Assembly (NCBI RefSeq): GCF_030384885.1
Contig: NZ_CP128613.1
DNA length: 64,000 bases
DNA from: Escherichia coli
GTDB taxonomy: Bacteria > Pseudomonadota > Gammaproteobacteria > Enterobacterales > Enterobacteriaceae
Reading direction: 5' to 3' (one strand)
Shown in pieces: positions 2,219 to 16,294 of this stretch. A program made the translations under genes and the position numbers. The notes beneath the pieces were generated by a model. The model was given only the letters and a program-made list of their open reading frames with translations, did not search any database and was not told the origin of the DNA. Each line of letters starts with the position of its first letter. Position 1 is the stretch's first letter.

Positions 2219-3175
2219 TTAAACCACCCGATCCAGCCCCAACATGCCGCGAGCCTGAATGAAACAGAGCAGCAACGTTCCCCATAAGGCCATCGTCAGG
2301 TAGGGGCTTATCCCGAGAATATTGAAGCCGCTTTCAATAATTTGCAGAAGAAACAGCGCCAGCACCATACCAATTATCCGCCCGCTGCCGCCGTCCGGAT
2401 TAACCCCGCCGAGTACTGCCGCGAGGATTGACACCAGCAAGTACGATTCGCCATAAGAGGCCTTAGCCGAGTTGAGTTTCGACATCATCAAAAATGCTGC
2501 TACCGCACAAAGCAAGGCGGAAATGACATACACCCATATCAGCACCCGACGCGTGTTAATACCGGAGTAAAGTGTTGCTCGTTCGTTAGAACCAATCAGA
2601 TAAATGGATTTACCGAGCGGCGTTTTCTCCAGCAATATCCACAGCCCCAGCGCCACTGCGGTAAACAACCACATCGGTAGCGGAATACCGAACCACTGTG
2701 CATGATTCAACCACAGCACCCATGAGGGATAATTGGCAATGGCGCTACCGCCTGTCACCAGAATATTTACCCCCTTGAGCAACGTCATCATCCCAAGCGT
2801 TGCAAGAATTGGCGACACTCGAATACCAGCAATCAATACGCCGTTACATAAACCGATTATCACCGCCGCGCCAGCGCCCGCCAGCAGCGTAGCGACAACC
2901 GTAGCAATACCCGGTGGATACTGAGTCGCCACCCACGCCATCACCAGTGAACAGGCGTTAGCAGTGGCAATAATTGACAAGTTAATGCCACCGCAAAGCA
3001 TGGTCACCGCCATAGCCAACGCCAGAATGCCCAGCACGGGCATTTGCGAAGCGACGGACTGGAAATTACTTATCGACCAGAAAATCTCCGGCATAGTAAT
3101 GCTGAAGGCGGCAACAGTTAGCACCAGCAGGCCGATCAAGTAAAACTCAATGTTATTACGCCACGATTTTTTCAT
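2219..3175 (-). CDS. Sugar ABC transporter permease (RbsC/LsrD-like)
   Basis: Polytopic hydrophobic ORF. Start placed at the internal ATG (MKKSWRNN...), which forms an ATGA stop/start overlap with the upstream permease. Absent from K-12 at this position. Confidence 0.8.
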   Translation of the reverse strand: MKKSWRNNIEFYLIGLLVLTVAAFSITMPEIFWSISNFQSVASQMPVLGILALAMAVTMLCGGINLSIIATANACSLVMAWVATQYPPGIATVVATLLAGAGAAVIIGLCNGVLIAGIRVSPILATLGMMTLLKGVNILVTGGSAIANYPSWVLWLNHAQWFGIPLPMWLFTAVALGLWILLEKTPLGKSIYLIGSNERATLYSGINTRRVLIWVYVISALLCAVAAFLMMSKLNSAKASYGESYLLVSILAAVLGGVNPDGGSGRIIGMVLALFLLQIIESGFNILGISPYLTMALWGTLLLCFIQARGMLGLDRVV

Positions 3176-4143
3176 AGCAGACTCCGGTTCTGATGCTGAC
3201 TCCACGCCGTGGCGCTAATGCTGGCAACGATGATGATGCCTGTGATCAATGTTTGCCAGTAAGACGAGACTCCCAATAAATTTAGCCCGTTTTGCATCAC
3301 TGCCAACAACACCACGCCGAGCAAAGTACCGGTTAACGTGCCGCGCCCGCCGAGCAAACTAGTGCCGCCAAGCACCACCGCAGCCAGTACTGTCAGCTCA
3401 TAACCCAGAAGAGAATCGGGGGCGACAGTCATCACCGTCCACGACTGCACTACACCCGCAGCACCAGACATCAATCCCATATAGCCGTAAACGAAAAGTT
3501 GCAGTTTCAGCACGCTAAAGCCGATGCGACTGGCTGATTCACGGTTCCCGCCAAGGGCATAAATTTTGCGCCCTACACTGGTGAAATTCATGATAAACGC
3601 TGTCAGCAGCACAACCGTAATCATGGCGATCAGCGGCAGACCAAGGCCATAGTCATAGCCGTCAACATCGGTGTACTTGAACAACATTACCCCCTGCTCA
3701 AACCACGGCGGAAAGTCGTACAGCCACACACCTTTACTCAACCATAACAGCAGGCCATAGAAAATATTCAGCGTCGAAATGGTGATGATGATAGAAGGCA
3801 CCCGTAGGCGATTAACCAGTAAGGCGTTTATTAAGCCAAGTAAAATGCCGATGCCGCCCGCCAGGGCAAACGCGACAGCAAAGTTGCCACCCATTTTTTG
3901 TAGCAACAGCACCATGCCGTATTGCGCAATGATGGTCATTGCCGGAAACGAAATATCAATTCCACCGGAAATTAACACCACAAACAAACCACAGGCGAGA
4001 ATAGTCAACATGGCATAGTTATTGGCGAGATCGTACAAATTACCGAATGTCAGAAACTCGTCGCTGCGCCAGGCAAGGCCAACAAACAGCCCCACAATCA
4101 GTAATGCCAGCCAGAATTCATGACGTTTTTTCAGTTCAACCAT
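3172..4143 (-). CDS. Sugar ABC transporter permease (RbsC/LsrC-like)
   Basis: 323-aa polytopic membrane ORF that overlaps the ATPase stop codon by 8 nt, suggesting translational coupling. Confidence 0.85.
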   Translation of the reverse strand: MVELKKRHEFWLALLIVGLFVGLAWRSDEFLTFGNLYDLANNYAMLTILACGLFVVLISGGIDISFPAMTIIAQYGMVLLLQKMGGNFAVAFALAGGIGILLGLINALLVNRLRVPSIIITISTLNIFYGLLLWLSKGVWLYDFPPWFEQGVMLFKYTDVDGYDYGLGLPLIAMITVVLLTAFIMNFTSVGRKIYALGGNRESASRIGFSVLKLQLFVYGYMGLMSGAAGVVQSWTVMTVAPDSLLGYELTVLAAVVLGGTSLLGGRGTLTGTLLGVVLLAVMQNGLNLLGVSSYWQTLITGIIIVASISATAWSQHQNRSLL

Positions 4144-5620
4144 TTACCACCTCCGCAATCCTGGCCTGAGAACTGCTGTCAGGCAGGAAGCTATGGGTGA
4201 TCTGACCTTTTTGCATTACCAAAATCCGGTGGCTTTGATACCACGCTTCTTCAATTTCATCGCAGATCATCAATACCGCAATGCCATGAGCCGCCAGATC
4301 GCTGATAATGCCGTATATTCCTGCTTTGTTGGCGATATCAACACCGACAGTCGGGCTATCGAGAATCAACAGTCGTGGCCCAATCGCCAGCCATTTGGCG
4401 ATCGATACTCGCTGCGCGTTACCCCCGGAAAGCGTATTCACCGGGAGATGTGGGTCAGAGACTTTGATGGTCAATGCCTTAATTAGCCTGTCCACCAGGT
4501 CACGCACTTTAGCTTCACTCAGAAAGCCGAAGCGATCTTTTACCTTGTGAAAAACAGTGCTAATGATGTTGTCTTCAATAGATTGCGCCATCACCAAACC
4601 GCGCGACATGCGATCTTCCGAAACATAACCAATACCGTGGCGGATGGCGTCCTGGTTACTATGCAGTGTAACCGGCTGACCGTTGATGAGGATCTCACCA
4701 GCATCCGGTCGGGTCATACCAAACAGACTCAGACATAATTCCGTGCGCCCCGCACCAAGCAGGCCAACAATCGACACCACTTCGCCCGCTTCCACCCGCA
4801 AGTTAATATTTTGATATTCCCCATGACGACTTAAATTACGCACCTCCAGCACTGGGGTGCTGGATTTTCCCTGCCACAACTCTCGCACCTGATATTCAAA
4901 CTCCTGGCCGGTCATCAGGAAACCGAGTTGTTTTGTGGTCATCTCTGCAGCCGGAAAGGTCCCGACCAGCTCACCATCTTTCAACACTGAAATACGGTCG
5001 GAAACTTCCATCACCTCTTCCAGACGATGACTGACGAAGACCACGCAAATCCCGCGTTCCCGCAATTGATGCACCACCTGTAATAACCCTTGCACTTCCT
5101 GATGGGTCAGCGAAGCGGTTGGTTCATCCATCACGATCAACCGTGCGTCCTGCGCCAGTGCACGGCAAATTGCCACCAGCTGACAGCGGGCAATTGAAAG
5201 CTCAGAAACGAGCGTATCCAGTGGCAATGTGACGTTAATACTGGTCATTGCCGCCTGCGCCACCTCACGCAGACGACGTCGGTTAACAAACAGACCGTGG
5301 TGATAGTGATTCACGGCGATATTCTCCCAGACACTCAGGTTAGGAAATAAAGAGAGGTCCTGATAAATCACCTGAATCCCCTGCGCCACCGAAGCGGCGG
5401 GTGTCAGCTTTGACCAGTTTTTCCCACCAAGCGTAATTTCCGCCCCCTCATCCGGGCGATAAACACCGGACATAATTTTAATCAACGTCGATTTACCACA
5501 GCCGTTTTGCCCGGCAAGGCAGTGCACCTCACCCGACATAAAGTCGAGAGAAACATCGCGCAGCGCTCGCGTGGCATGAAACGTTTTGTTGATATGACGA
5601 AGGGAAAGGAAGGTTTCCAT
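4136..5620 (-). CDS. Sugar ABC transporter ATP-binding protein with duplicated ATPase domains
   Basis: Two ABC cassettes: Walker A GQNGCGKST, signature LSGGNAQR, Walker B LLILDSPT/LIVMDEPT. Start chosen at ATG 5620 (METFLSL...), preceded by AGGGGA; the ORF-track TTG start at 5635 is less likely. Confidence 0.88.
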   Translation of the reverse strand: METFLSLRHINKTFHATRALRDVSLDFMSGEVHCLAGQNGCGKSTLIKIMSGVYRPDEGAEITLGGKNWSKLTPAASVAQGIQVIYQDLSLFPNLSVWENIAVNHYHHGLFVNRRRLREVAQAAMTSINVTLPLDTLVSELSIARCQLVAICRALAQDARLIVMDEPTASLTHQEVQGLLQVVHQLRERGICVVFVSHRLEEVMEVSDRISVLKDGELVGTFPAAEMTTKQLGFLMTGQEFEYQVRELWQGKSSTPVLEVRNLSRHGEYQNINLRVEAGEVVSIVGLLGAGRTELCLSLFGMTRPDAGEILINGQPVTLHSNQDAIRHGIGYVSEDRMSRGLVMAQSIEDNIISTVFHKVKDRFGFLSEAKVRDLVDRLIKALTIKVSDPHLPVNTLSGGNAQRVSIAKWLAIGPRLLILDSPTVGVDIANKAGIYGIISDLAAHGIAVLMICDEIEEAWYQSHRILVMQKGQITHSFLPDSSSQARIAEVVNG

Positions 5621-5668
5621 AGCATCCCCTGGCAATAAGAATCGGGGCTTTCGCCCCGAAGAAATGGA

Positions 5669-6655
5669 TTAATAAAGTGAGTCAATATTGTCTTTGTTGA
5701 CCAGTAATACCTTATGGAAACGGATAATTCGCTTATCCATATCTACGTCGGCCTTACCGAGATTCTCCATTTCTAATCCAGGTTTGATCTCTTCACCCTT
5801 CAGCAACGTGCTGGCGACGGCCGCGAGTGCGTAACCTGCAGAGGCCGGATCGTAAGTAATCCCTTCGGTGATATCACCACTTTTAATCAGTGATGCCGCC
5901 TGTGAAGGGATCATCATGCCATAGACTGCGACTTTATTTTTCGCCCGTTTCTCTTTCACCGCACGTCCCGCGCCAATCGGACCGTTTGAACCAAAGGAGA
6001 CAACCGCTTTCAAGTCAGGATAGGTTTTCATGAGGTCCAGTGTGGTACGACGTGAGTCATCCACACTCTCGGCAACCGGCATGCGGCGGGTAACTTCATG
6101 CATATCCGGGTAATGCTCTTTCTGGTATTTCACCAGCAAGTCAGCCCATAAGTTATGCTGCGGCACGGTCAAACTACCCACGTAAATCACATAGCCGCCC
6201 TTGCCACCCATGCGTTTCGCCATATGTTCAACATATTCAGCGGCAAATTTTTCGTTATCAATGATTTCGATATCCCAGTTAGCACTTGGCTGACCGGGGG
6301 ATTCGTTGGTCAGAACCACAATTCCGGCATCTCGCGCTTTTTTGAATACCGGTTCCAGCACGTTGGCATCGTTTGGCACAATTGTAATTGCATTAACCTT
6401 ACGGGCGATTAAATCCTCAATGATTTTAACCTGTTGCGGAGCATCAGTACTTGAAGGTCCCACCTGTGACGCATTAACACCAAAGGCTTTACCCGCCTCG
6501 ACCACACCTTCGCCCATGCGATTAAACCACGGCATACCATCGACTTTAGAGATATTCACCACGACTTTTTCCGCTGCCTGGAGCGGCGAGGAAATTAGCG
6601 CAGCGCCTAATAACAGCGAAGACACCATATTGATAACAAAACGTTTATTCATCAT
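5669..6655 (-). CDS. Periplasmic sugar-binding protein (LsrB/RhaS-like type I PBP)
   Basis: 328-aa ORF with an N-terminal signal peptide (LLLGAALISSPLQA/AE) and periplasmic-binding-protein-like sequence. It is the first gene of the 4-gene transporter operon. Confidence 0.8.
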   Translation of the reverse strand: MMNKRFVINMVSSLLLGAALISSPLQAAEKVVVNISKVDGMPWFNRMGEGVVEAGKAFGVNASQVGPSSTDAPQQVKIIEDLIARKVNAITIVPNDANVLEPVFKKARDAGIVVLTNESPGQPSANWDIEIIDNEKFAAEYVEHMAKRMGGKGGYVIYVGSLTVPQHNLWADLLVKYQKEHYPDMHEVTRRMPVAESVDDSRRTTLDLMKTYPDLKAVVSFGSNGPIGAGRAVKEKRAKNKVAVYGMMIPSQAASLIKSGDITEGITYDPASAGYALAAVASTLLKGEEIKPGLEMENLGKADVDMDKRIIRFHKVLLVNKDNIDSLY

Positions 6656-6815
6656 TTCAGCCTCATTGCAGGGTAGTCAGGAAGTGTTCGCCCAAATTAG
6701 CGCGCTGGAGAGAATAAGAATTTTCGAATATTTTTATGCAGAATAAACAGCCCTATTTCAGGCAGCTATTAAAAATTTGGTTATAAATATGGACAAAACG
6801 GGCAGTAACAATAAG

Positions 6816-6831
6816 TGTGACAATCATCACG
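6816..6831. promoter_or_regulatory. Candidate CRP site TGTGA-N6-TCACG upstream of the ABC transporter operon
   Basis: Matches 9 of 10 positions of TGTGA-N6-TCACA. It lies about 160 nt upstream of the binding-protein start in an AT-rich intergenic region. Confidence 0.4.
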
Positions 6832-6905
6832 TAAAAAATAGTAAAACAAACACAATTAACGATATTTTATGTTTGTGAGTTTATTTCATGCGGATAGAGA
6901 GTTAT

Positions 6906-7316
6906 CTACACAACTTCAATGAGGGCATATTCTTCAAAAATAACGTCCATTTCGGGTGAATAGCTTCCCTCTGCCTGGAAAAAACGACGGTGTTCATTGC
7001 GCCAATATTCAAGACTAAGATCACCTTCACCTTCCTTACGGGCAAGCTCCGCGGTGACATCAGAAAATCGCAGTAAATGCAGGCCAATCACTCTGATAAC
7101 ACATACAGGCTCACCACGGCTATTTTCTACAATCTTATACTCACCAATCATCGGAAATGCGTTGTCTTCAATACATCCTGCCAGCGAACCACAGGAAGCA
7201 GTTTTAACACCAGTTGCAATCAACGTTGCGAGGTAATCGGCCAACGCTGCTGAATCGCCAAAACTACAAAAGGAAGCATGGGGATATTTTTGTGAGATTT
7301 TTTCTTTTATGGTCAT
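6906..7316 (-). CDS. ASCH-domain protein
   Basis: 136-aa ORF with the pattern I associate with ASCH proteins (SFGDS..LAD.L..L...G.KTA.C ... EGEGD.SL.YWR..H..FF). Not present between yahK and yahJ in K-12. Confidence 0.7.
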   Translation of the reverse strand: MTIKEKISQKYPHASFCSFGDSAALADYLATLIATGVKTASCGSLAGCIEDNAFPMIGEYKIVENSRGEPVCVIRVIGLHLLRFSDVTAELARKEGEGDLSLEYWRNEHRRFFQAEGSYSPEMDVIFEEYALIEVV

Positions 7317-7613
7317 GAGAATATTTTCGCGATTACGGAAAAAAAATCACATCTTAATTACTGTCGATAACTATCAGCAAGAGGATCATTGGTTTTTCTA
7401 TGTTTAATCTTTTTTATCCGAAGCAGGTCACATTTATGGCTTGATAAATACCTTTGTTAAAACTCACTTTTGTGTATTTCTCTCAAATAATCCCCTGGAA
7501 ATTATGCCGGGAGATTATAAAGTTCAGGATCATTCATTAACAAACCATTCCCGCCCCACTCCCTGGGGCTTAAATCTCTTACTATTCACCGTTGCAGGCG
7601 TTTCAAATTCGTA

Positions 7614-8996
7614 TCAACCTGCCACACTCCCCCACACCAGTTGCCCTTTATGGAACGTTGCGGTTCTCGGCGAGATACGCGCCACCGCCTCGGCGGAACA
7701 GGAGGCGTCCACCAGCACAAAGCTGGCGTCATCCTGCGCTTTAGGCCAGACGCGCTCGCCTTTTTCGTTGAGCGGCAATACATCACCAGTGGCTAAAAAC
7801 AGCGAGCGGGAAAGGTTCTGTTCGTTAGGGCGAATATAGAGCTGCGCGTACAGATTGGCTTTTTCCAGCATGTCGCCCAGGCCGTAAGGCGACCAGTGGT
7901 CAATAACGCTGTCAGTGCCAGTCATTACTTTTACGCCTTTGTCGTGCAGTTGTCTAAGCGGCATATGCAGCGTGCCAATCGGTACCGTCGAGGCAATAGA
8001 AATTTGCTGCGCCGCCATCCGGTTCGCCAGTTCATCTACCTGTTGCTCGTTGAGGGTAGCCAGCGCAAAGGCGTGGCTGATGGTCAGCTTGCCTTTTAGC
8101 TGCGGCGTTTTCTCCACTGTTTCAACCATATAATTGATGGCCGCCACGCCCGCCGGAGTGGTTTCGTGCAGGTGAAGATCGACGCCTTTGTCGTAGTCCA
8201 GCGCAATCTGGAACATGGTGTCGAGGGATTTTTCCATCGCGCCATCAACACTGGTCGGGTCCAGCCCGCCAACGTAATGCGCGCCTGCCTGCATTGCTTC
8301 ACGCATCAAGGGTTCCGATTTCGACAGCAGCAAACCGTGCTGCGGGAAGGCGACAATTTCACACTCGAAGCCCGCCTGACGTCGCGCCAGCACCGCCTGC
8401 AAATTTTGCAGATTTTTCAGGCCGGAAACCGGTTCGATATTGCAGTGGCTGCGGGCAATGGTGGTGCCTTTCGACTGCAATAAATCGATCAGTTTTTCTG
8501 CCCGCTCCTGCGTGTAGGGTTGCAGTTCCGGCAGCATTTTTTGCTCGAGTTTGATCATGTCCTGGATGGTGGTGCCTGCCGGGCGATTGAGCGAGCGCCA
8601 CGGTCCGCCGTAAAAGGTTTTGTCGAGATGAATATGCATGTCGCGAGTAGTGGGCAGCATCAGCTTACCGCCAGCGTCATATTGCGGCAGCGTGGCGTCC
8701 GGATGCTGCTTGTTCTCATGTAGCGCAACAATTTTACCGTCCTGAATCTCCACGGTCTGGCGCGCCGTGCGGGTCTGCACCGCCACACCGTTTTCGTAGT
8801 CAAAACCGGTTTCCAGCAGCACGTTATCAAGATAGTAATGCGGGTCAGTGATTTTCATGGTGTTATTCGCGTCGCAGTGGGTTGTGCCAGAGACCTCCGC
8901 ATGGGCGAATGGCACAGAGGTACCAAACAGCGCGGCGGCGGTGACCATCTTACCGCTCTGGCTCAGAAATTCACGGCGGCTATTGTTTTTTTTCAT
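7614..8996 (-). CDS. yahJ: Amidohydrolase-superfamily deaminase with a Tat signal peptide
   Basis: 460-aa ORF matching K-12 YahJ. The N-terminus carries the SRREFL twin-arginine motif, a hydrophobic stretch and AHA. Metal-dependent hydrolase HxH motif (DMHIHLD). Confidence 0.9.
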   Translation of the reverse strand: MKKNNSRREFLSQSGKMVTAAALFGTSVPFAHAEVSGTTHCDANNTMKITDPHYYLDNVLLETGFDYENGVAVQTRTARQTVEIQDGKIVALHENKQHPDATLPQYDAGGKLMLPTTRDMHIHLDKTFYGGPWRSLNRPAGTTIQDMIKLEQKMLPELQPYTQERAEKLIDLLQSKGTTIARSHCNIEPVSGLKNLQNLQAVLARRQAGFECEIVAFPQHGLLLSKSEPLMREAMQAGAHYVGGLDPTSVDGAMEKSLDTMFQIALDYDKGVDLHLHETTPAGVAAINYMVETVEKTPQLKGKLTISHAFALATLNEQQVDELANRMAAQQISIASTVPIGTLHMPLRQLHDKGVKVMTGTDSVIDHWSPYGLGDMLEKANLYAQLYIRPNEQNLSRSLFLATGDVLPLNEKGERVWPKAQDDASFVLVDASCSAEAVARISPRTATFHKGQLVWGSVAG

Positions 8997-9005
8997 CTTA
9001 CGTCC

Positions 9006-9956
9006 TTACGTTTTAATAATATGGGTGCCCGTTTCGCCACGCAGCGCCGCGGGCAGGCATTCCGGCGTGGTGATAATCACTTCTTTACCGCCCTGTTCCA
9101 GGAACGTCAGGCTGGCGATGATTTTTGGCAACATGCTGCCTGGCGGGAAATGCCCTTCCTGCATATAGCGGGTCATGGTGGCAATATCCACCCGATCCAG
9201 CGCCTGCTGCTGCGGTTTGCCAAAATGAATACAGACTTTTTCCACGCCAGTGGTGATCACCAGAATGTCGGCGTGAATTTCACGGGCCAATAGCGCGGTA
9301 GAGAGATCTTTGTCGATAACCGCGTCCACGCTTTGGTAATCCCCCGCTTCACTGCACACCACCGGAATTCCACCGCCGCCCGCGCCAATTACCACAAAGT
9401 CTTGTTGGATCAGCGCCTTAATGGCAGGTGCTTCGACAATACGTTTCGGTTCCGGCGAGGCGACCACGCGGCGATAGCCGCGTCCGGCATCTTCAACAAA
9501 ACGCCAGTCAGGGTTAGTCTTTTGTAATTCGTCACGCTGGCTGTCACTAAAGAATGCGCCGATGGGCTTGGTGGGATGGGCAAACCCCGGATCGTTTTTA
9601 TCCACTTCCACCTGAGTCACCACAGTGACGGCTTTTTTCTCGCCGTGGCGCGCCAGCCGATTGTTCAGCGCCTGTTGGATCAAGTAGCCAATGCCGCCTT
9701 GCGTATCTGCCACACAGTTCGCCAGCGGCGTTAAGGGCAGCCCTTCGCGCTCGTGGGCAATCTCCGCACGGCGTAGATCCAGCCCAACCTGCGGCCCGTT
9801 GCCGTGGGTCAGCACAATGTCGTAATCGGAAGCCAGCATTTCCAGCACCGTATCGGCGACGGCCTTCACCGCCTCCGCCTGATGCTCAATCGACTGGCTG
9901 GCGTTATCTTTGATAATGCTGTTGCCACCAATGGCAACGACCACAAGCTCTTTCAT
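9006..9956 (-). CDS. yahI: Carbamate kinase-like protein
   Basis: Matches K-12 YahI (316 aa) from the internal ATG (MKELVVVAIGGN...). The 39-codon upstream extension in the ORF track has no homologous support. Amino-acid kinase fold motifs are present. Confidence 0.88.
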   Translation of the reverse strand: MKELVVVAIGGNSIIKDNASQSIEHQAEAVKAVADTVLEMLASDYDIVLTHGNGPQVGLDLRRAEIAHEREGLPLTPLANCVADTQGGIGYLIQQALNNRLARHGEKKAVTVVTQVEVDKNDPGFAHPTKPIGAFFSDSQRDELQKTNPDWRFVEDAGRGYRRVVASPEPKRIVEAPAIKALIQQDFVVIGAGGGGIPVVCSEAGDYQSVDAVIDKDLSTALLAREIHADILVITTGVEKVCIHFGKPQQQALDRVDIATMTRYMQEGHFPPGSMLPKIIASLTFLEQGGKEVIITTPECLPAALRGETGTHIIKT

Positions 9957-10051
9957 ATTGTTATGTCCGCTACAGAGGGTGATGAGGTTATGAAAGTGAG
10001 GTTGCCCCTCTCCCCAGAAGGGAGAAGGGATCGTAAAGTGCACTTTGCAGG

Positions 10052-11470
10052 TCAGACGCCGTAACGTTCGCACCAGCCAAGAATGGCTTTTTCGAAGCAG
10101 GCGAATGGTGGATGCACAATGCCCGCGCCAATCATGCCGACGCCCGCATCTTTATGGGCAATGGCGGTGTTGATCACTGGCAGAATGCCACTGCTACCCA
10201 CGCGGGTGATGTCGATTGCCGACGGCACGCCCATAAATCCGAGCAGCGGAATGGTGACGTTCGGGTTTTCGCCGAGGGTGATTTCACGCATCTGGCGGGA
10301 GAAATCGATAGCCTCTTCCACCGTACCGCCCACCAGCGCGACGATAGCGGGTGCGGTCGCCATAGCAAATCCACCAATGCCGTAGGTTTCGGTGATGGCG
10401 CTGTCGCCAATATCCAACCCAGAATCTTCCGGCTTATAACCTGCAAACATCGGGCCGATCACCTGCTGCGCCGGACCGGTAAACCATTGCCCCGGCAGGC
10501 CGCTGACCCGCAGGCCGAACTCGACGCCGTTACGCGCCATCGTGGTCACCACGGTGCTGTATTCGATGCCGTGCGCCGCATCCATCGCCGCTTTACACAT
10601 CGCCATCCACGTCGGGCCGGAGAAGTAGTCGCTGCTGGCGACAAACTCAAACACTTCGCGCTGTTGCTCGACGGAATAACCCGCCTGAATAATCCCCGGC
10701 GTCAGCGCCTGAATCAGCAGCGTCGTCCCGGCGTTATTGCGGTTATGGCATTCATCGCCCATATGCAGCGCCTGCGCCAGCATCAAGCGCAGATCGATCT
10801 CGCCGATAATTTTCATCGCGTCACGCAGCATTGGCCCCTGCACATCGCGCATCCAGTTGAGGCGGTCAATCACGCTCTGATCGTTGGCACCCATACGCAA
10901 AATCTTCGCCATCTGCTCGCTCATATTGGTGTAAGCGATGTTGCCGTAGGTTTTGTTTTTCACGATGTGCATAAACATCGAGGCAGAGGTAACACCCGCC
11001 ATCGAACCCACGCAGTCATGCTCGTGGCACGGCGAGAAAGTGATCTCCCCGGAAGCCGCCAGTTCGGCCGCCTCGTCGAGATCTTTCGCCAGCCCTTCGA
11101 ACACCAGGGCCCCGGTGACCGCGCCTTTCATCGCGCCGCACATTTTTTCCCAGGTCACTGGCGGCCCGGCGTGAAGAATGGTTTTCGCCGTCATGCCTGG
11201 CACCACGTTAATCGCCTGATCAAAGCCAATCAGTACCGGATGCGACTGGATAATGCGTTCCAGCGCCTGCTGGTTAGCGGCGGCGATTTTGTCTGCCAGC
11301 GGTGAATCGGCAATGTTGTCCAGCGCCTGCACCACCTGCATATTGCCCTGCCCCGGCGGCGTCCAGTCGAGTTGGGTCACTTCTACATACTGCTTTTTCA
11401 GGTCATCGCTAAACATGGCGATGCCGACGTTAATAACGTTCAACGGTTGGCTAAACAGTGACTGGCTCAT
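10052..11470 (-). CDS. yahG: DUF1116-family protein (YlbE paralog)
   Basis: 472-aa ORF matching K-12 YahG. Its start ATG shares one nucleotide with the yahF stop codon. Confidence 0.88.
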   Translation of the reverse strand: MSQSLFSQPLNVINVGIAMFSDDLKKQYVEVTQLDWTPPGQGNMQVVQALDNIADSPLADKIAAANQQALERIIQSHPVLIGFDQAINVVPGMTAKTILHAGPPVTWEKMCGAMKGAVTGALVFEGLAKDLDEAAELAASGEITFSPCHEHDCVGSMAGVTSASMFMHIVKNKTYGNIAYTNMSEQMAKILRMGANDQSVIDRLNWMRDVQGPMLRDAMKIIGEIDLRLMLAQALHMGDECHNRNNAGTTLLIQALTPGIIQAGYSVEQQREVFEFVASSDYFSGPTWMAMCKAAMDAAHGIEYSTVVTTMARNGVEFGLRVSGLPGQWFTGPAQQVIGPMFAGYKPEDSGLDIGDSAITETYGIGGFAMATAPAIVALVGGTVEEAIDFSRQMREITLGENPNVTIPLLGFMGVPSAIDITRVGSSGILPVINTAIAHKDAGVGMIGAGIVHPPFACFEKAILGWCERYGV

Positions 11471-13017
11471 CAGGCTTCCTCCCCTTTGCAGATAAATTCA
11501 CGCGCCAGCAATCCGGTATTGGTGCTACTGCTCGCCAGAATCACTCCGGCATCAAGCAGCATCTGGCTTTGTTGTTCTAATGATGGCGTATCGAGATCGG
11601 TGCCCAGTACATAGGCGAGAATGATCAACTCGCGTCCTTCGGCAGCGGCGATCGCTTTCGCTTCTTTGATCGCCTTGATGGTGGAACCGACCGGATCTTC
11701 ATGCGATCCAAATCCGAGCACAAAATCCATCACGATCACCGCCACTTCTGGATCACGCGCTTCTTCGATCAAGCGACTGATGCGGTTGGTGGGGTCAATC
11801 ATTGGATGCGGCTTGCCGTTGGTGAAGTCGTCATCGCCAAAGTCGAGGAAGGTGTGTTTGATGCTGCGGTTGATATCTTGCAGGCGGAATTCAGGATCGG
11901 GCTGGATGTTGCTGTAGACATCGCCGTGTTTTTCCATCACCGCGAACATGGTTTCGTCGCACAGTGTGCCGCCGCAGAACAGGCCACGAATGTATTTCTG
12001 CCGCGGTTGCAGACGCGCACGCACATCCGCAATCAACGGCTGGTTCAGGGTATGCAGGTCGAGATGTTCTTGTTTCACGCCACAGAGCATCACCGCTTTC
12101 AACGCCGCCTCTTTGGTGCCGCGGGCAAACTGTAGCCCGTGCTCGTCCACCGGTGTTTCGCCACGGCCGAGGAAGCAGACCACCACCGGCTTGCGGCAGG
12201 CGCGTGCGCGTTCCAGCACTTTGCGGGCCACCGCAGGCGCGGGCGGTTTGGAGATAAGTACAATGATTTCAGTTTGCGGATCGTTTTCCAGCATCCCGAT
12301 AGCGTCGAGCATCATCAGGCCGCCGATTTTCTCGCTCAGGTCGCGCCCGCCGGTACCGATCAGTTGCGAAACGCCGCCGCCAAATTCATGAATGCGGACG
12401 CTCAGCTCCTGGCTGCCGGTGCCGGATGCGCCAACAATACCGATGTTGCCGCGACGCACGGCGTTACCAAAGCAGAGCGCCGCGCCGTTGATAATCGCCG
12501 TGCCGCAGTCTGGCCCCATCATCAGCAGCCCTTTTTCGTGGGCCAACTGTTTGAGCGCCAGTTCATCTTCAACCGAGACGTTATCGGAAAACAGCATCAC
12601 GTTAAGATCGTTTTGCAGCGCCTGACGTGCTTCGCGAGCGGCAAACAGACCGTTGACCGAAATCACGGCCAGGTTACTTTCCGGGATATGCTTTTTGGCG
12701 CTGGCAATCGTGGCGTAACGCGCCTCGTGCGAGCCACTTTGCGCTTTGCTGTTGAACAGTTCTTCAATCTCCACCAGCAACTGCTCGTTGTCTGCGCCCG
12801 CTTTGCCGTTGATGACAATCATCAGGTCGCCGTTTTTCGCCTGTTCCAGCTCCGGCGTCAGCAGCCCTAAATTCTTCAGAACGCCTTTGTTCATTTCGGT
12901 CGCCATCGCCACAAATGCCTGCTCGACACCGTCGAGTTTATTTGCACGTGTGGAGATAGACATCAGCGAGACAGAATCAAAATAGGTATTCGGTTTAATG
13001 ACTATTTTAACTGACAT
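11470..13017 (-). CDS. yahF: FdrA-like acyl-CoA synthetase / succinyl-CoA ligase alpha-like protein
   Basis: 515-aa ORF matching K-12 YahF, with CoA-binding/ligase-like glycine-rich segments. It overlaps the yahE stop by 11 nt. Confidence 0.88.
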   Translation of the reverse strand: MSVKIVIKPNTYFDSVSLMSISTRANKLDGVEQAFVAMATEMNKGVLKNLGLLTPELEQAKNGDLMIVINGKAGADNEQLLVEIEELFNSKAQSGSHEARYATIASAKKHIPESNLAVISVNGLFAAREARQALQNDLNVMLFSDNVSVEDELALKQLAHEKGLLMMGPDCGTAIINGAALCFGNAVRRGNIGIVGASGTGSQELSVRIHEFGGGVSQLIGTGGRDLSEKIGGLMMLDAIGMLENDPQTEIIVLISKPPAPAVARKVLERARACRKPVVVCFLGRGETPVDEHGLQFARGTKEAALKAVMLCGVKQEHLDLHTLNQPLIADVRARLQPRQKYIRGLFCGGTLCDETMFAVMEKHGDVYSNIQPDPEFRLQDINRSIKHTFLDFGDDDFTNGKPHPMIDPTNRISRLIEEARDPEVAVIVMDFVLGFGSHEDPVGSTIKAIKEAKAIAAAEGRELIILAYVLGTDLDTPSLEQQSQMLLDAGVILASSSTNTGLLAREFICKGEEA

Positions 13018-13870
13018 AATTCCCTCCGTAGGTTTGGCTCAGCGCACAAGCATCGGCCATGCCATACAGCATGTCGCAGCCGGAACTGGAGCCAATATGT
13101 TTAATTTTTTCTATTGCCTGGGTTGAATTCCCAGGGATGCCATAAATAATGTCGTGAATAAAATGGTGAATATTTTCCCGACAACGTTGCTGTAATGCGG
13201 CTTCCAGCGTTATGGCACTTAGTAACGTGGTATTATTTCTGCCGCGTTGCAGACCGAGATAAAATTTCTCTTTGTATTTTTCCGCCGGATGCCCGGAAAT
13301 AAATAAAATAAGTACCAGCCCGGTCAGATAATCATCGGCTGATGGCGTAAGGCCAATCCCTAACCCCATCATATTAGCAACCGCCAAAGCGATATTTTGT
13401 TTATCGCTTACTGCCTGAATAACTGCCCGTCGTTTAATACGTAATTCTTTATTTAACGCCTGATAAAACGGATTATCGCCGCAATAATTAAACAGGGTTT
13501 CATTTTCCCCCAGGTGCTGATGAATAATGTCGTGCCACTGTTGCCAGGCGATAAGGTGAAATTTTTCAGCAGTCATTTGCAAGGTTGGGGACAGCCAACG
13601 CTGGCAATGACTCATCTCTATATGAAGATGTTGACCAACCGTAATGCCTTGATCGTCAAACTGAACTTTATCACCATGATGGAACAGACCATTAAAGTGA
13701 GTGAGTGCCAACCGACAACTGTTTGGCGCATTGTCGTACTCTTCACAAAGCAGCGTCAGCAACTGCTGGCGGGCCGGAAGTGCGATATTTACCGCTCTGG
13801 CAAAGACCTGTTCAACCTGTCCTTGCCCCCGCTGCGCCAGAAAATCAGCATCCGCAGTTAGCGCCCACAC
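13007..13870 (-). CDS. yahE: DUF2877-family protein (YlbF paralog)
   Basis: 287-aa ORF matching K-12 YahE, in the same operon as yahFG. Confidence 0.85.
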   Translation of the reverse strand: MWALTADADFLAQRGQGQVEQVFARAVNIALPARQQLLTLLCEEYDNAPNSCRLALTHFNGLFHHGDKVQFDDQGITVGQHLHIEMSHCQRWLSPTLQMTAEKFHLIAWQQWHDIIHQHLGENETLFNYCGDNPFYQALNKELRIKRRAVIQAVSDKQNIALAVANMMGLGIGLTPSADDYLTGLVLILFISGHPAEKYKEKFYLGLQRGRNNTTLLSAITLEAALQQRCRENIHHFIHDIIYGIPGNSTQAIEKIKHIGSSSGCDMLYGMADACALSQTYGGNYVS

Positions 13871-13909
13871 ACACCGTCTTTCTGGTGTGTTGATAGCAAG
13901 CCTCCCGGT

Positions 13910-14515
13910 TTATGCACCTGCGGCAATCAGTAACTGCGCAATCTCTTCAAAGCCTCGTTCCCGCGCCAGTTCCAGCGGCGTTTTACCATATTTATCGGTC
14001 AGATGCGGGCTGGCACCGTGCTCCAGCAATAACTGGACAATCGCCTGCTGTTTAATCCCACCATCGTTAAGCACAATCGCTTCCAGTAGCGGCGTCCAGC
14101 CAACATGGTTGGTCTGGTTAACGTTAATATCCGTATGCGCCAAAAGCTCTTTTACAATACTTAAATGGCCTTTTTCACAGGCAGGCGTCAGGCCGACACC
14201 GCCGAAACGGGTTACACAATTAAGGTCTGGTTTAGCCGGTAAAATAATTCGTAGTAGCGTTAAATCACCGTTCAGGCAGCTCATTAAAAAAGGATTTAAA
14301 CAGGTCTGGTCTTGTTTATTAATATCCGCACCGGCATCAATTAACGCCTGAACGCAAGCATATTGCTGATATAAACTTGCCAGCGTAATTGCCGTTTTCC
14401 CCTGGCGATCGCAGGTATTAATATCGACACCCAGCGCAAGGCAGGTTTTTACTTTATCGATATCACCCTGTTGTGCAGCCAATAAATAATCGGCAGGTAG
14501 ATTTTTTATACTCAT
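13910..14515 (-). CDS. yahD: Ankyrin-repeat protein
   Basis: 201-aa ORF with repeated ankyrin-type units (G.TPL..A...G....V..LL..GAD.N). Matches K-12 YahD. Confidence 0.88.
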   Translation of the reverse strand: MSIKNLPADYLLAAQQGDIDKVKTCLALGVDINTCDRQGKTAITLASLYQQYACVQALIDAGADINKQDQTCLNPFLMSCLNGDLTLLRIILPAKPDLNCVTRFGGVGLTPACEKGHLSIVKELLAHTDINVNQTNHVGWTPLLEAIVLNDGGIKQQAIVQLLLEHGASPHLTDKYGKTPLELARERGFEEIAQLLIAAGA

Positions 14516-14772
14516 TCACATTCCCCTGGTATTTGTGGCTGTTTTCGATGAATTGAGAATAGCAACGATAATCTGATAAAAGAACCCGCTTAAATTTAAT
14601 TCGCCGTATTTCGCCTTTTTGTTGAATGATGTTCAACAATCTTTTCGCAGTGTGCGGTAGTGCAATATTTGTTTCTTTGACCCGATACCCTTTCACTCAA
14701 TCAGGTTTTATTTCTCTATAGTCTGCACATGTAAGAGTAGCTTTCGTCCATGTCTAACCAGAGGGGAACAAG

Positions 14773-15270
14773 ATGAACGGACTCACGGCAACGGGTGTCA
14801 CCGTCGGTATTTGTGCAGGGCTTTGGCAGTTAGTGTCTTCACATGTCGGGCTCTCTCAGGGATGGGAATTATTAGGAACCATTGGCTTTGTCGCCTTTTG
14901 CAGTTTTTATGCCGCAGGCGGCGGTAAATCGGGGTTTATCAAGAGCCTGGCGGTTAATTACTCCGGGATGGTGTGGGCGTTTTTCGCCGCGCTGGCTTCC
15001 GGTTGGCTAGCCTCGGTGAGTGGGATTTCCGGCTTCTGGGCGAGCGTGATTATGACTGTACCCTTCTCGGCGGTGGTGGTCTGGCAAGGACGTTTCGGTT
15101 TACTGTCTTTTATTCCCGGAGGCTTTCTCGGCATGACGCTATTTTTTGCCAGCGGGATGAACTGGACGGTGACATTACTGGGTTTTCTGGCGGGTAACTG
15201 CGTGGGAATAATTTCAGAATATGGCGGACAAAAATTAAGCGAAGCGACGACTAAACGCGACGGGTATTAA
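14773..15270 (+). CDS. yahC: Inner-membrane protein YahC (DUF1097)
   Basis: 165-aa hydrophobic ORF matching K-12 YahC. Confidence 0.85.
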   Translation: MNGLTATGVTVGICAGLWQLVSSHVGLSQGWELLGTIGFVAFCSFYAAGGGKSGFIKSLAVNYSGMVWAFFAALASGWLASVSGISGFWASVIMTVPFSAVVVWQGRFGLLSFIPGGFLGMTLFFASGMNWTVTLLGFLAGNCVGIISEYGGQKLSEATTKRDGY

Positions 15271-15361: not shown

Positions 15362-16294
15362 ATGAACTCAATTTTCACCGAAGAAAACCTGTTGGCGTTT
15401 ACTACCGCTGCGCGTTTTAGCAGCTTCAGTAAAGCGGCAGACGAGTTGGGTTTAACCACTTCCGCCATTAGCTACACCATCAAGCGAATGGAAACGGGGC
15501 TGGATGTGGTGCTGTTCACCCGTAACACCCGCAGTATTGAGTTAACCGAGTCCGGGCGTTATTTTTTCCGCAAAGCTACCGACCTGCTGAATGATTTTCA
15601 CGCCATCAAACGCAGCATTGATACTATTTCGCAGGGCATTGAAGCACGGGTTCGCATTTGTATTAACCAGCTGCTTTATACGCCCAAACACACCGCACGC
15701 TTATTACAGGTACTGAAAAAGCAATTTCCAACCTGCCAGATTACCGTCACCACCGAAGTGTATAATGGCGTCTGGGATGCGATTATTAATAATCAGGCGA
15801 ATATCGCTATCGGCGCACCCGACACGCTGCTGGACGGCGGCGGCATTGATTACACGGAGATTGGCGCGATTCGCTGGGCTTTTGCTATCGCCCCGGATCA
15901 CCCGTTAGCCTTTGTGCCAGAGCCGATCGCTGAAAGTCAGCTACGTCTCTACCCCAATATCATGGTGGAAGACACCGCGCATACGATTAATAAAAAAGTG
16001 GGCTGGTTGCTGCATGGGCAGGAGTCGATTCTGGTGCCAGATTTCAACACCAAATGTCAGTGCCAGATTTTAGGCGAAGGAATTGGTTTTTTGCCGGATT
16101 ACATGGTCCGTGAGGCGATGGCGCAATCCCTGCTGGTTACCCGACAAATCCATAATCCGCGCCAGGATTCACGCATGTTACTGGCGACCCAGCACTCTGC
16201 CACCGGTCAGGTGACGCAGTGGATTAAAAAACAATTTTCGCCAAATGGCATATTAACGGGGATCTATCAGGATTTACTGCATCGGGAGAATTAA
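15362..16294 (+). CDS. yahB: LysR-family transcriptional regulator
   Basis: 310-aa ORF with an N-terminal LysR-type HTH (FSKAADELGLTTSAISYTIKRME). Matches K-12 YahB. Confidence 0.9.
   Translation: MNSIFTEENLLAFTTAARFSSFSKAADELGLTTSAISYTIKRMETGLDVVLFTRNTRSIELTESGRYFFRKATDLLNDFHAIKRSIDTISQGIEARVRICINQLLYTPKHTARLLQVLKKQFPTCQITVTTEVYNGVWDAIINNQANIAIGAPDTLLDGGGIDYTEIGAIRWAFAIAPDHPLAFVPEPIAESQLRLYPNIMVEDTAHTINKKVGWLLHGQESILVPDFNTKCQCQILGEGIGFLPDYMVREAMAQSLLVTRQIHNPRQDSRMLLATQHSATGQVTQWIKKQFSPNGILTGIYQDLLHREN

Follow-up and report, generated by a model that had tools for sequence, protein, structure and literature searches.

A putative carbamoyl-transfer module encoded by the yah locus of Escherichia coli

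Within the E. coli y-ome, yahC–yahJ form a dense cluster of uncharacterised genes (PMC11551758). We analysed this cluster in a 64,000-nucleotide stretch of E. coli DNA (contig NZ_CP128613.1 of RefSeq assembly GCF_030384885.1), referred to below as the window. On balance, we favour the reading that the yah genes encode a catabolic module of substrate-level phosphorylation, which forms an orthogroup separate from that of the AllFGH–AllK module and acts on a compound other than the one used by All. Judging from the genes that accompany the module, the substrate is most likely a ureide of purine or pyrimidine breakdown, resembling oxalurate or allantoin without being oxalurate itself. The AllFGH–AllK type of module, to which Yah belongs as a variant, is already known. 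New here are the inclusion of yahJ and of a conserved operator in the unit, the YahF–YahG core, the conserved ankyrin partner and the loss of a permease in E. coli. An earlier note on this DNA had attributed carbamoyl transfer and ATP yield to the block, and this is also the function that we infer from the protein families involved.

Relation to AllFGH–AllK and extent of the unit

AllF–AllG–AllH, the closest relative of the Yah proteins, was given a function only in 2024, when the purified proteins were found to catalyze the reaction oxalurate + phosphate <-> oxamate + carbamoyl phosphate (PMC11326118). Their genes form an operon with that of the catabolic carbamate kinase AllK; the yah paralogs are not mentioned in that study (PMC11326118). 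Further papers on the All system, which belongs to the anaerobic allantoin pathway of E. coli and gains ATP and ammonia from its final step, are PMC9843812 and PMC12535856. The earlier note was correct in tying the three protein families and a carbamate kinase to the oxalurate step, and the purification of AllFGH has made this link experimental. Pfam and NCBIfam searches of the window proteins bear out the families that it had proposed (ankyrin, AllH, FdrA, AllG and carbamate kinase). The paralogy between the yah and All blocks likewise holds and is wider than claimed, extending over five protein pairs. Pairwise identities between the window proteins and their K-12 counterparts are 38.6% for YahF/AllF (over 513 residues), 45.3% for YahG/AllG, 25.3% for YahE/AllH, 37.7% for YahI/AllK and 37.6% for YahB/AllS.

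The two modules thus share their three enzyme families, and each combines them with a carbamate kinase gene in the operon and with one of two paralogous LysR regulators, the All one being an activator. In both, F and G are tightly coupled, and H/E appears to be the least important subunit. On the other hand, the gene order is F-G-H in All and E-F-G in Yah, and about 45 residues found at the C-terminus of AllF sit at the N-terminus of YahG instead. Features of Yah alone are the conserved ankyrin gene, a deaminase with a twin-arginine (Tat) signal and a nucleobase-type permease, which E. coli has lost. Identity between the two systems is only 25–45%, and the yah genes do not lie beside allDCE.

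A survey of one genome per species yielded 80 loci, each with at least 85% identity to YahG, in the genera Escherichia, Kluyvera, Citrobacter, Enterobacter, Serratia, Providencia, Proteus and Aeromonas; common to them is the arrangement yahB : yahD-(E)-F-G-(X)-I-J. In none of the 80 loci is the block flanked by all genes, nor is it part of the allantoin regulon beside allDCE; on the K-12 chromosome, it maps to 0.335 Mb, against 0.53–0.55 Mb for the all genes. Beyond these genera, Brevibacillus, Janthinobacterium, Bosea, Pasteurella and a metagenomic island have Yah-type G proteins 71–79% and F proteins 60–72% identical to E. coli YahG and YahF; for G, this range spans Bacillales as well as Beta- and Alphaproteobacteria. 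The same distant proteins are only 45–47% (G) and 35–37% (F) identical to AllG and AllF, so that they do not qualify as orthologs of the All proteins. The AllG family comprises 568 clusters at E <= 1e-30 among 1.84 billion cluster representatives, and the whole Yah clade is a single 50%-identity cluster among them. These comparisons place the Yah proteins in an orthogroup separate from All.

Of the 5426 complete E. coli genomes, 5005 have the yah block at 80% coverage or more and 5407 have allFGHK. The two modules thus occur together in over 90% of strains, an argument against redundancy. Every yah gene is under purifying selection, with dN/dS of 0.01–0.26 in comparisons with E. albertii, Kluyvera and Citrobacter: 0.01–0.03 for yahB, 0.02–0.04 for yahG, 0.03–0.08 for yahI, 0.04–0.07 for yahJ, 0.06–0.08 for yahF, 0.05–0.13 for yahD and 0.21–0.26 for yahE. 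Two outliers (yahJ against strain ECDA1023 and yahF against E. albertii) were not counted, as frameshifts or poor assembly sequence are likely there.

The window matches E. coli 2013C-4282 (NZ_CP027579.1) at 100% identity, and the RefSeq annotation of that genome gives the same gene names. An open reading frame (ORF) scan of the window places yahD-E-F-G-I-J on the minus strand, including the five genes (yahD, E, F, G and I) listed in the earlier note, and all yah genes are intact. The region is laid out as follows.

7614–8996, minus strand: yahJ, 460 aa, amidohydrolase with a Tat signal, similar to AtzC and cytosine deaminases; last gene of the unit
9006–9956, minus strand: yahI, 316 aa, carbamate kinase family
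9957–10051, minus strand: yahG–yahI spacer, 95 nt, with an 11-bp hairpin at about 10005–10029
10052–11470, minus strand: yahG, 472 aa, AllG family (DUF1116)
11470–13017, minus strand: yahF, 515 aa, AllF/FdrA family, fold similar to the succinyl-CoA synthetase alpha subunit
13007–13870, minus strand: yahE, 287 aa, GTG start, AllH family (DUF2877), probably an accessory subunit
13910–14515, minus strand: yahD, 201 aa, ankyrin repeats; first gene of the operon
14554–14665, minus strand: yahD control region, conserved blocks in an upstream alignment of 13 taxa
14773–15270, plus strand: yahC, 165 aa, DUF1097 inner-membrane protein (PF06496)
15362–16294, plus strand: yahB, LysR-type regulator, divergent from yahD; its proximity to the block had been pointed out before

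Translational coupling of yahE, yahF and yahG is as the earlier note described it: yahE and yahF overlap by 11 nt (13007–13017), and the yahF stop and yahG start share 1 nt in an ATGA at 11470. The gap between yahD and yahE is 39 nt. The 95 nt that separate yahG from yahI exclude translational coupling of these two genes; the longest ORF at the yahI locus reaches 10073 from a GTG, but we judged it over-extended and set the yahI start at 9956. The yahJ start lies 9 nt past the yahI stop and is preceded by a GGA ribosome-binding site. Since yahJ adjoins yahI in essentially all related loci, spacing and conserved synteny together suggest that it belongs to the yahD–yahI transcription unit. The block is therefore larger than first described: yahD–yahI stand as listed, and the unit also takes in yahJ and the conserved operator. 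Scans for promoter-like and terminator-like sites in the yah region gave results at chance level. An Rfam scan of the region returned no matches, and we accordingly see no riboswitch at the locus.

The YahF–YahG core and its partners

YahF matches the FdrA model NF004760 with 490 bits (cutoff 433) and has the CoA_binding (PF02629) and Ligase_CoA (PF00549) domains expected of an AllF-like subunit. Its structural matches are FdrA itself (PDB 3dmy) and the alpha chains of succinyl-CoA synthetase (SCS), and the motif G[KR]PHPMIDP is invariant. YahG, encoded beside the F gene, is an AllG-like subunit (PF06545, 298 bits) with an orthologue of solved structure (3clq). It is the most conserved product of the block, with 85–99% identity across Enterobacterales. 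The boundary between the two proteins has shifted, as residues 12–53 of YahG correspond to the final 45 residues of AllF. In addition, many clusters of the AllG family are natural fusions of about 1000 residues that combine CoA_binding, Ligase_CoA and AllG. Because of the shifted boundary and the natural fusions, we regard F and G as parts of what appears to be one enzyme, the catalytic core of the module. Domains of the classical transcarbamylases (OTCace_N, OTCace) had no Pfam or NCBIfam match among the nine window proteins scanned.

By comparison, YahE looks expendable. It belongs to the AllH family (PF11392, 99 bits), yet its gene is absent from 27 of the 70 full-length loci of the survey (those of Enterobacter, Lelliottia, Leclercia, Aeromonas cavernicola and others), where yahF follows about 100 bp after yahD. 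It is also the fastest-evolving Yah protein. All this indicates that YahE is probably an accessory subunit. The dispensability of yahE in many species agrees with the genetics of AllH: a ΔallH strain keeps a little oxamate production, allFG alone brings back 7% of the wild-type level, and AllH is substoichiometric in the purified enzyme (PMC11326118). The earlier treatment of YahEFG as a unit consequently holds for F and G, which form the constant core, and an obligate trio is doubtful. We also observed that the list of YahE homologs contains several large clusters of truncated proteins (173–222 aa) from E. coli and Shigella sonnei beside the full-length protein of 287 aa, which may reflect either frequent inactivation of yahE or gene-calling artefacts.

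YahI exceeds the cutoff of the carbamate kinase model NF009007 by a wide margin (641 bits against 266). Of the 80 enterobacterial and Aeromonas loci, 74 include a gene for a carbamate kinase, the six exceptions being short or truncated contigs, and so do most distant loci.

The ankyrin protein YahD has ankyrin matches in Pfam and no signal peptide, pointing to a cytoplasmic location. Orthologues with 51–72% identity are encoded beside E-F-G in Brevibacillus, Janthinobacterium, Pasteurella, the metagenomic island and IncF plasmids, and a YahD orthologue adjoins E-F-G in every examined Yah-type lineage but one, a low-GC metagenomic type. Loci of the Bosea type and many of those in Bacillales encode instead a protein of about 390–450 residues that joins the ankyrin domain to TPR repeats. 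The All module has no ankyrin gene. We agree with the earlier remark that an ankyrin gene in a metabolic operon is unusual; by its distribution, the gene appears to be a conserved signature of the Yah orthogroup across phyla, and YahD may act as a scaffold or subunit. We considered an anti-phage defence role for the ankyrin gene and rejected it: PADLOC gave only generic ankyrin-repeat matches for YahD and no match for YahE, F, G, I or J. A distant YahD relative (111 bits) is the 201-residue ankyrin protein EF0377 of Enterococcus faecalis V583 (PDB 3hra), which we treat as a lead and not as evidence. EF0377 is co-transcribed with the gene for an Amidohydro_3-type amidohydrolase, EF0378, and the pair is reported to be strongly induced in insect and mouse infection. 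This pairing outside E-F-G may hint that the ankyrin partner is tied to an amidohydrolase step.

Deaminases, carriers and regulation

Clues to the substrate come from the genes around the core. YahJ forms an NCBIfam subfamily of its own (NF005312, 714 bits against a cutoff of 447). The closest solved structure is that of AtzC, N-isopropylammelide isopropylaminohydrolase (6nbo, E 1.9e-44), followed by cytosine deaminases, with CodA at E of about 1e-16 to 1e-20. Like these mononuclear amidohydrolases, YahJ displays HxH and further metal-ligand motifs in its sequence; unlike them, it bears a Tat signal peptide. The N-terminus, MKKNNSRREFLSQ...AHA followed by E, is a twin-arginine signal: in MKKNNSRREFLSQSGKMVTAAALFGTSVPFAHA, cleaved before E, an S/T-R-R-x-F-L motif, a hydrophobic stretch and an AxA cleavage site can be recognized, so that export is predicted. 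Of 74 YahJ orthologues, 70 have the Tat motif, as do the Pasteurella and Shinella homologs. YahJ appears in a list of Tat substrates, and a ΔyahJ strain of extraintestinal pathogenic E. coli (ExPEC) was mildly outcompeted in mouse co-infection (competitive index 0.70, p = 0.02; PMC7549933).

Two unrelated types of deaminase accompany Yah-type cores. The first, YahJ with its Tat signal, is found in Enterobacterales, Pasteurella and the metagenome loci L094 and L099. The second, a protein of about 150 residues with the cytidine deaminase (CDA) fold, is found in Bacillales and loci L095, L097, L098 and L149, mostly adjoining the gene of an NCS1 carrier that matches allantoin permease best (444 bits, under the cutoff). 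Across lineages, the regulators of the module are either of the AllS-like LysR or of the PucR type. Recurrent neighbors include an AllC-like M20 amidohydrolase, an alpha/beta hydrolase, AllB-like cyclic amidohydrolases and a racemase of the family that includes hydantoin and allantoin racemases.

In a more distant subtype of F–G pairs (about 50% identity to YahG; metagenome loci L161 5555–14217, L168 5016–15281 and L163 2474–9905), the neighbors are a molybdenum hydroxylase of the xanthine dehydrogenase family, a PF04199 'cyclase' (formamidase-like) hydrolase and amidohydrolases. Most of these loci have neither an AllH-like nor an ankyrin gene. Isochorismatase-like hydrolases belong to a family that includes biuret and triuret hydrolases. 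One of them is encoded in a third, paralogous gene set of avian pathogenic E. coli (APEC) O1, located in the tkt1 pathogenicity island (APECO1_2632–2638), together with genes annotated yahE/yahF/yahG, a carbamate kinase and a permease (PMC3349570). In nitrifiers, allFGHK homologs adjoin biuret and triuret hydrolase genes (PMC12625717). In view of these varied neighbors of F–G pairs, the AllF–AllG family seems to serve as a general device for ureide phosphorolysis with which diverse N-heterocycle pathways end.

Most Yah loci also encode a carrier. In 58 of the 70 full-length loci, a permease gene lies between yahG and yahI; its product has 516 residues and 12–14 predicted transmembrane segments, and is 65–81% identical across phyla. 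Pfam and NCBIfam gave no match for it; the labels in the source databases are xanthine permease, AGZA-family permease and adenine/guanine/hypoxanthine permease. Its distribution indicates that the permease is ancestral to the module and was lost in E. coli. The 95-nt yahG–yahI spacer of the window contains no remnant of it that we could find, and the spacer hairpin is unexceptional (-23.2 kcal/mol, z = -1.5). In K-12, the corresponding spacer (NC_000913.3 339744–340164) is 421 nt long, is filled with repetitive extragenic palindromic (REP) elements and bears the annotation of a doubtful ORF, yahH. With only 95 nt and a single hairpin in the window, the place of the lost permease gene is thus structurally unstable within E. 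coli. In 131 E. coli genomes, megablast gave a 54-bp match to the permease ORF of Enterobacter; we rejected it as a deletion scar, as it is an unrelated repeat between yjdP and phnP.

The yahC gene shows the opposite distribution. Of the 70 full-length loci, 12 have it between the operator and yahB, and these are precisely the ones that lack the permease, namely those of E. coli, Kluyvera, Raoultella, C. amalonaticus and one Klebsiella. This makes YahC a lead as a substitute carrier. However, permease loss and yahC gain were probably a single evolutionary event, and for that reason the anticorrelation is weak evidence for a role of YahC in transport.

Some strains have nevertheless regained the permease that their chromosomes lack. 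In avian and extraintestinal E. coli, about 70 conjugative IncF plasmids bear a module that is Citrobacter-like as a whole and consists of a LysR gene and Ank-E-F-G-permease-carbamate kinase. In p1108-IncFIB (NZ_MG825378.1), this second module occupies 3719–12158 between IS1 and IS26, and the IS26 cut after the kinase removes yahJ. Only plasmid matches of about 82% identity represent this genuine second copy. Near-identical matches that would suggest yah on plasmids were discarded; they come from F-prime plasmids and from chromosomes filed as plasmids.

As for regulation, the best NCBIfam match of YahB is AllS (NF007501, 265 bits, under the cutoff of 372), the activator of allantoin genes, followed by PunR. 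The yahB gene stands beside the module in Enterobacterales and also in Janthinobacterium (70% identity) and Pasteurella (61%). We aligned the 260 nt that precede yahD in 13 taxa, among them Aeromonas, Providencia and an IncF plasmid copy. Several blocks are kept, and the flanks diverge:

14554–14566, upstream of yahD: -10-like sequence GTTGCTATTCT
14582–14604, upstream of yahD: conserved block
14618–14640, upstream of yahD: inverted repeat ATTGTTGAA-N5-TTCAACAA of the LysR T-N11-A type
14650–14665, upstream of yahD: GCAC-N5-GCAC

This layout is the one expected for a LysR-activated promoter, and we infer that YahB binds at the inverted repeat. A simple sigma-70 scan upstream of yahD found nothing above chance, as expected if the promoter is activator-dependent.

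Next to the unit, between yahJ and yahK, the window contains a further segment (2219–7321, minus strand), with a gene for an ASCH-domain protein (6906–7316, with its own promoter-like site at 7543–7514) and a four-gene ABC transporter of the sugar/autoinducer-2-like type. The segment is whole in 2213 of the 5426 E. coli genomes and absent from K-12.

Proposed pathway and alternative explanations

The pathway we propose would run as follows. YahJ, exported by the Tat system, would deaminate an amino- or imino-substituted N-heterocycle, or a guanidino-type precursor, in the periplasm. The deaminated ureide would be taken up by the AzgA-like nucleobase-type permease in most species; in E. coli, either another carrier would take over, with YahC as a candidate, or the pathway would be crippled. 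YahF–YahG would then split the ureide with phosphate (R-NH-CO-NH2 + Pi -> R-NH2 + carbamoyl phosphate), a half-reaction akin to the acyl-phosphate step of SCS. YahE would be a dispensable accessory subunit and YahD an orthogroup-specific ankyrin scaffold or partner. YahI would transfer the phosphate to ADP, giving ATP, and the carbamate would decay to CO2 and NH3. When the substrate is present, YahB would activate the yahD promoter through the conserved inverted repeat.

Similar logic is found elsewhere. Arginine and agmatine deiminase pathways consist of a deiminase, a catabolic transcarbamylase, a carbamate kinase and an antiporter. The sequence of steps suggested for Yah (nitrogen removal, phosphorolysis, ATP formation by the kinase, a membrane carrier) would be the same. 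However, Yah has neither a deiminase of the guanidino-modifying-enzyme fold nor a transcarbamylase of the aspartate/ornithine transcarbamylase (ATCase/OTCase) fold; its deaminase has the amidohydrolase or CDA fold and is predicted to be periplasmic in Gram-negatives. The ygeW–yqeA genes of anaerobic purine catabolism also resemble Yah, in that they pair a carbamoyl-transfer enzyme of orphan substrate with a carbamate kinase paralog, YqeA. YgeW has the classical ATCase/OTCase fold, and this system is not known to include FdrA, AllG or AllH proteins.

A number of observations weigh against the proposed pathway. The phosphohistidine of SucD, His246, is opposite Tyr in YahF and Phe in AllF, in a MAFFT alignment made uncertain by large insertions. 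Comparison of the YahG profile with those of YahF and SucC by hhalign gave probabilities of about 0.2%, leaving no sequence-profile link between YahG and SCS subunits; the idea that YahG is an SCS-beta-like or YahF-like domain was dropped for this reason. Nor was structure prediction of help, as the AlphaFold2 model of YahG, built from a 21-sequence alignment, was unusable (pLDDT 37.7). YahI falls slightly under the cutoff of the arcC model TIGR00746 (344.5 against 358). Some Yah loci (Janthinobacterium, the metagenomic island) have no deaminase, and Shinella has a YahJ-like enzyme paired with a permease in the absence of E-F-G, an arrangement that seems to favor periplasmic conversion followed by uptake. 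The core has no conserved ring-opening enzyme, which leaves unexplained the route from the product of a heterocycle deaminase to a terminal ureide. None of the 5426 complete E. coli genomes has the permease gene on its chromosome at a threshold of 80% coverage or more; because of this, the pathway may be impaired in E. coli. Finally, a literature search on yahB, yahD–J, DUF1116 and DUF2877 found no functional data. YahB appears only in lists of uncharacterised regulators, and papers on gemcitabine evolution and low oxygen mention yah genes incidentally.

A bolder form of the proposal, which we consider speculative and rather doubtful, is that Yah represents a third deiminase-type ATP pathway, beside those for arginine and agmatine, assembled from unrelated folds. 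Together with a periplasmic or CDA-type deaminase and a divergent carbamate kinase, an SCS-fold carbamoyltransferase requiring an ankyrin subunit would act on a nitrogen-rich purine or pyrimidine metabolite. Within this idea, candidate substrates would be an allantoin or oxalurate analogue together with its guanidino or imino form, or a cyclic ureide opened by phosphate. Were it true, YahD would be the first bacterial ankyrin protein shown to be integral to a metabolic enzyme.

Two further explanations strike us as unlikely, to about the same degree. According to one, the Yah module is an isofunctional duplicate of All: YahEFG–YahI would be a second oxamate carbamoyltransferase and kinase acting on oxalurate from another source (parabanate or oxidised purines) under different regulation. 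This would account for the shared families, the carbamate kinase, the AllS-like regulator and the Bacillales NCS1 carrier closest to allantoin permease. It could also explain residual oxamate in complemented ΔallFGH strains, which reached 16% of the wild-type level with allGH alone and 7% with allFG alone (PMC11326118, Table 3), if chromosomal YahF and YahE could supply the missing subunits and so substitute in part. On the other hand, K-12 ΔallF, ΔallG and ΔallFGH strains produced zero oxamate although yahEFG were intact (PMC11326118), which is indirect evidence, as the yah genes may have been silent under those conditions. Moreover, Yah proteins are 25–45% identical to All proteins but 60–79% identical to one another across phyla, arguing for a distinct and tightly constrained specificity. 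Carriage of both modules by most E. coli strains also speaks against a duplicate, as do the permease, the ankyrin partner and the deaminases, all absent from the All system. The earlier suggestion of a second pathway with its own substrate is in this way supported, if indirectly, by the separate orthogroup, the coexistence with allFGHK, the permease and the deaminases found elsewhere, and the lack of oxamate in ΔallFGH.

According to the other explanation, the E. coli block is a cryptic, disabled leftover of a horizontally acquired module. The missing permease, the REP-filled K-12 spacer with its doubtful ORF, the many truncated YahE entries from E. coli and Shigella, a literature devoid of phenotypes and inducers, and the re-acquisition of a complete copy on IncF plasmids in avian strains all agree with decay. 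Yet the genes are intact in the window, the block is retained by the great majority of the genomes (5005 of 5426) and the yahD operator is conserved. Furthermore, dN/dS is 0.02–0.08 for yahF, yahG, yahI and yahJ within the permease-less clade (E. coli, E. albertii, Kluyvera), and the mildly reduced competitiveness of the ΔyahJ strain in mice (PMC7549933) also speaks against a dead locus.

We give little credence to operation in the reverse direction, with YahI making carbamoyl phosphate from ATP and carbamate and YahFG carbamoylating an imported or periplasm-made amino-heterocycle for detoxification or metabolite synthesis. The equilibrium of transcarbamylases generally lies towards the ureido product, AllFGH was assayed that way, and ankyrin/TPR partners together with linkage to virulence plasmids could suit a non-nutritional role; however, the context is catabolic (uptake-type permeases, deaminases, PucR/AllS-type regulators, AllC- and AllB-like hydrolases), the paralogous All module is catabolic in vivo, and neither a conserved exporter nor downstream biosynthetic genes accompany the module.

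Least credible of all is the literal annotation of YahF ('acyl-CoA synthetase FdrA') as a nucleoside diphosphate (NDP)-forming acyl-CoA synthetase activating or cleaving an acyl-CoA, with YahG and YahE as its other subunits and a loosely associated kinase: YahF does share the CoA-binding Rossmann domain and the ligase-CoA domain with SCS alpha and the NDP-forming acyl-CoA synthetases, to the point of clear similarity, and phosphorolysis of a carbamoyl amide would be chemically analogous to the conversion of succinyl-CoA to succinyl phosphate, but no ATP-grasp domain (the SCS beta-like partner) occurs in any yah protein or natural F–G fusion, YahG shows no detectable profile similarity to SCS beta, the catalytic histidine is not evidently kept (with the alignment caveat given above), the homologous AllFGH has measured transcarbamylase activity on carbamoyl phosphate and oxamate, and the carbamate kinase gene is a near-constant companion even in most distant loci.

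If the favored reading of Yah as a catabolic module with its own substrate is true, enteric bacteria, Bacillales and many soil bacteria share a highly conserved means of gaining ATP and ammonia from a nitrogen-rich compound. This would bear on the nitrogen economy of the gut and urinary tract, given the fitness effect of yahJ in ExPEC and the IncF copies in avian pathogens. With its permease missing, K-12 is the wrong organism in which to search for the substrate; Citrobacter, Serratia, Enterobacter and Brevibacillus hold the full set of genes. More generally, 568 clusters at 50% identity make the AllF–AllG family a large one, and it is also modular; oxalurate is probably just one of many substrates.

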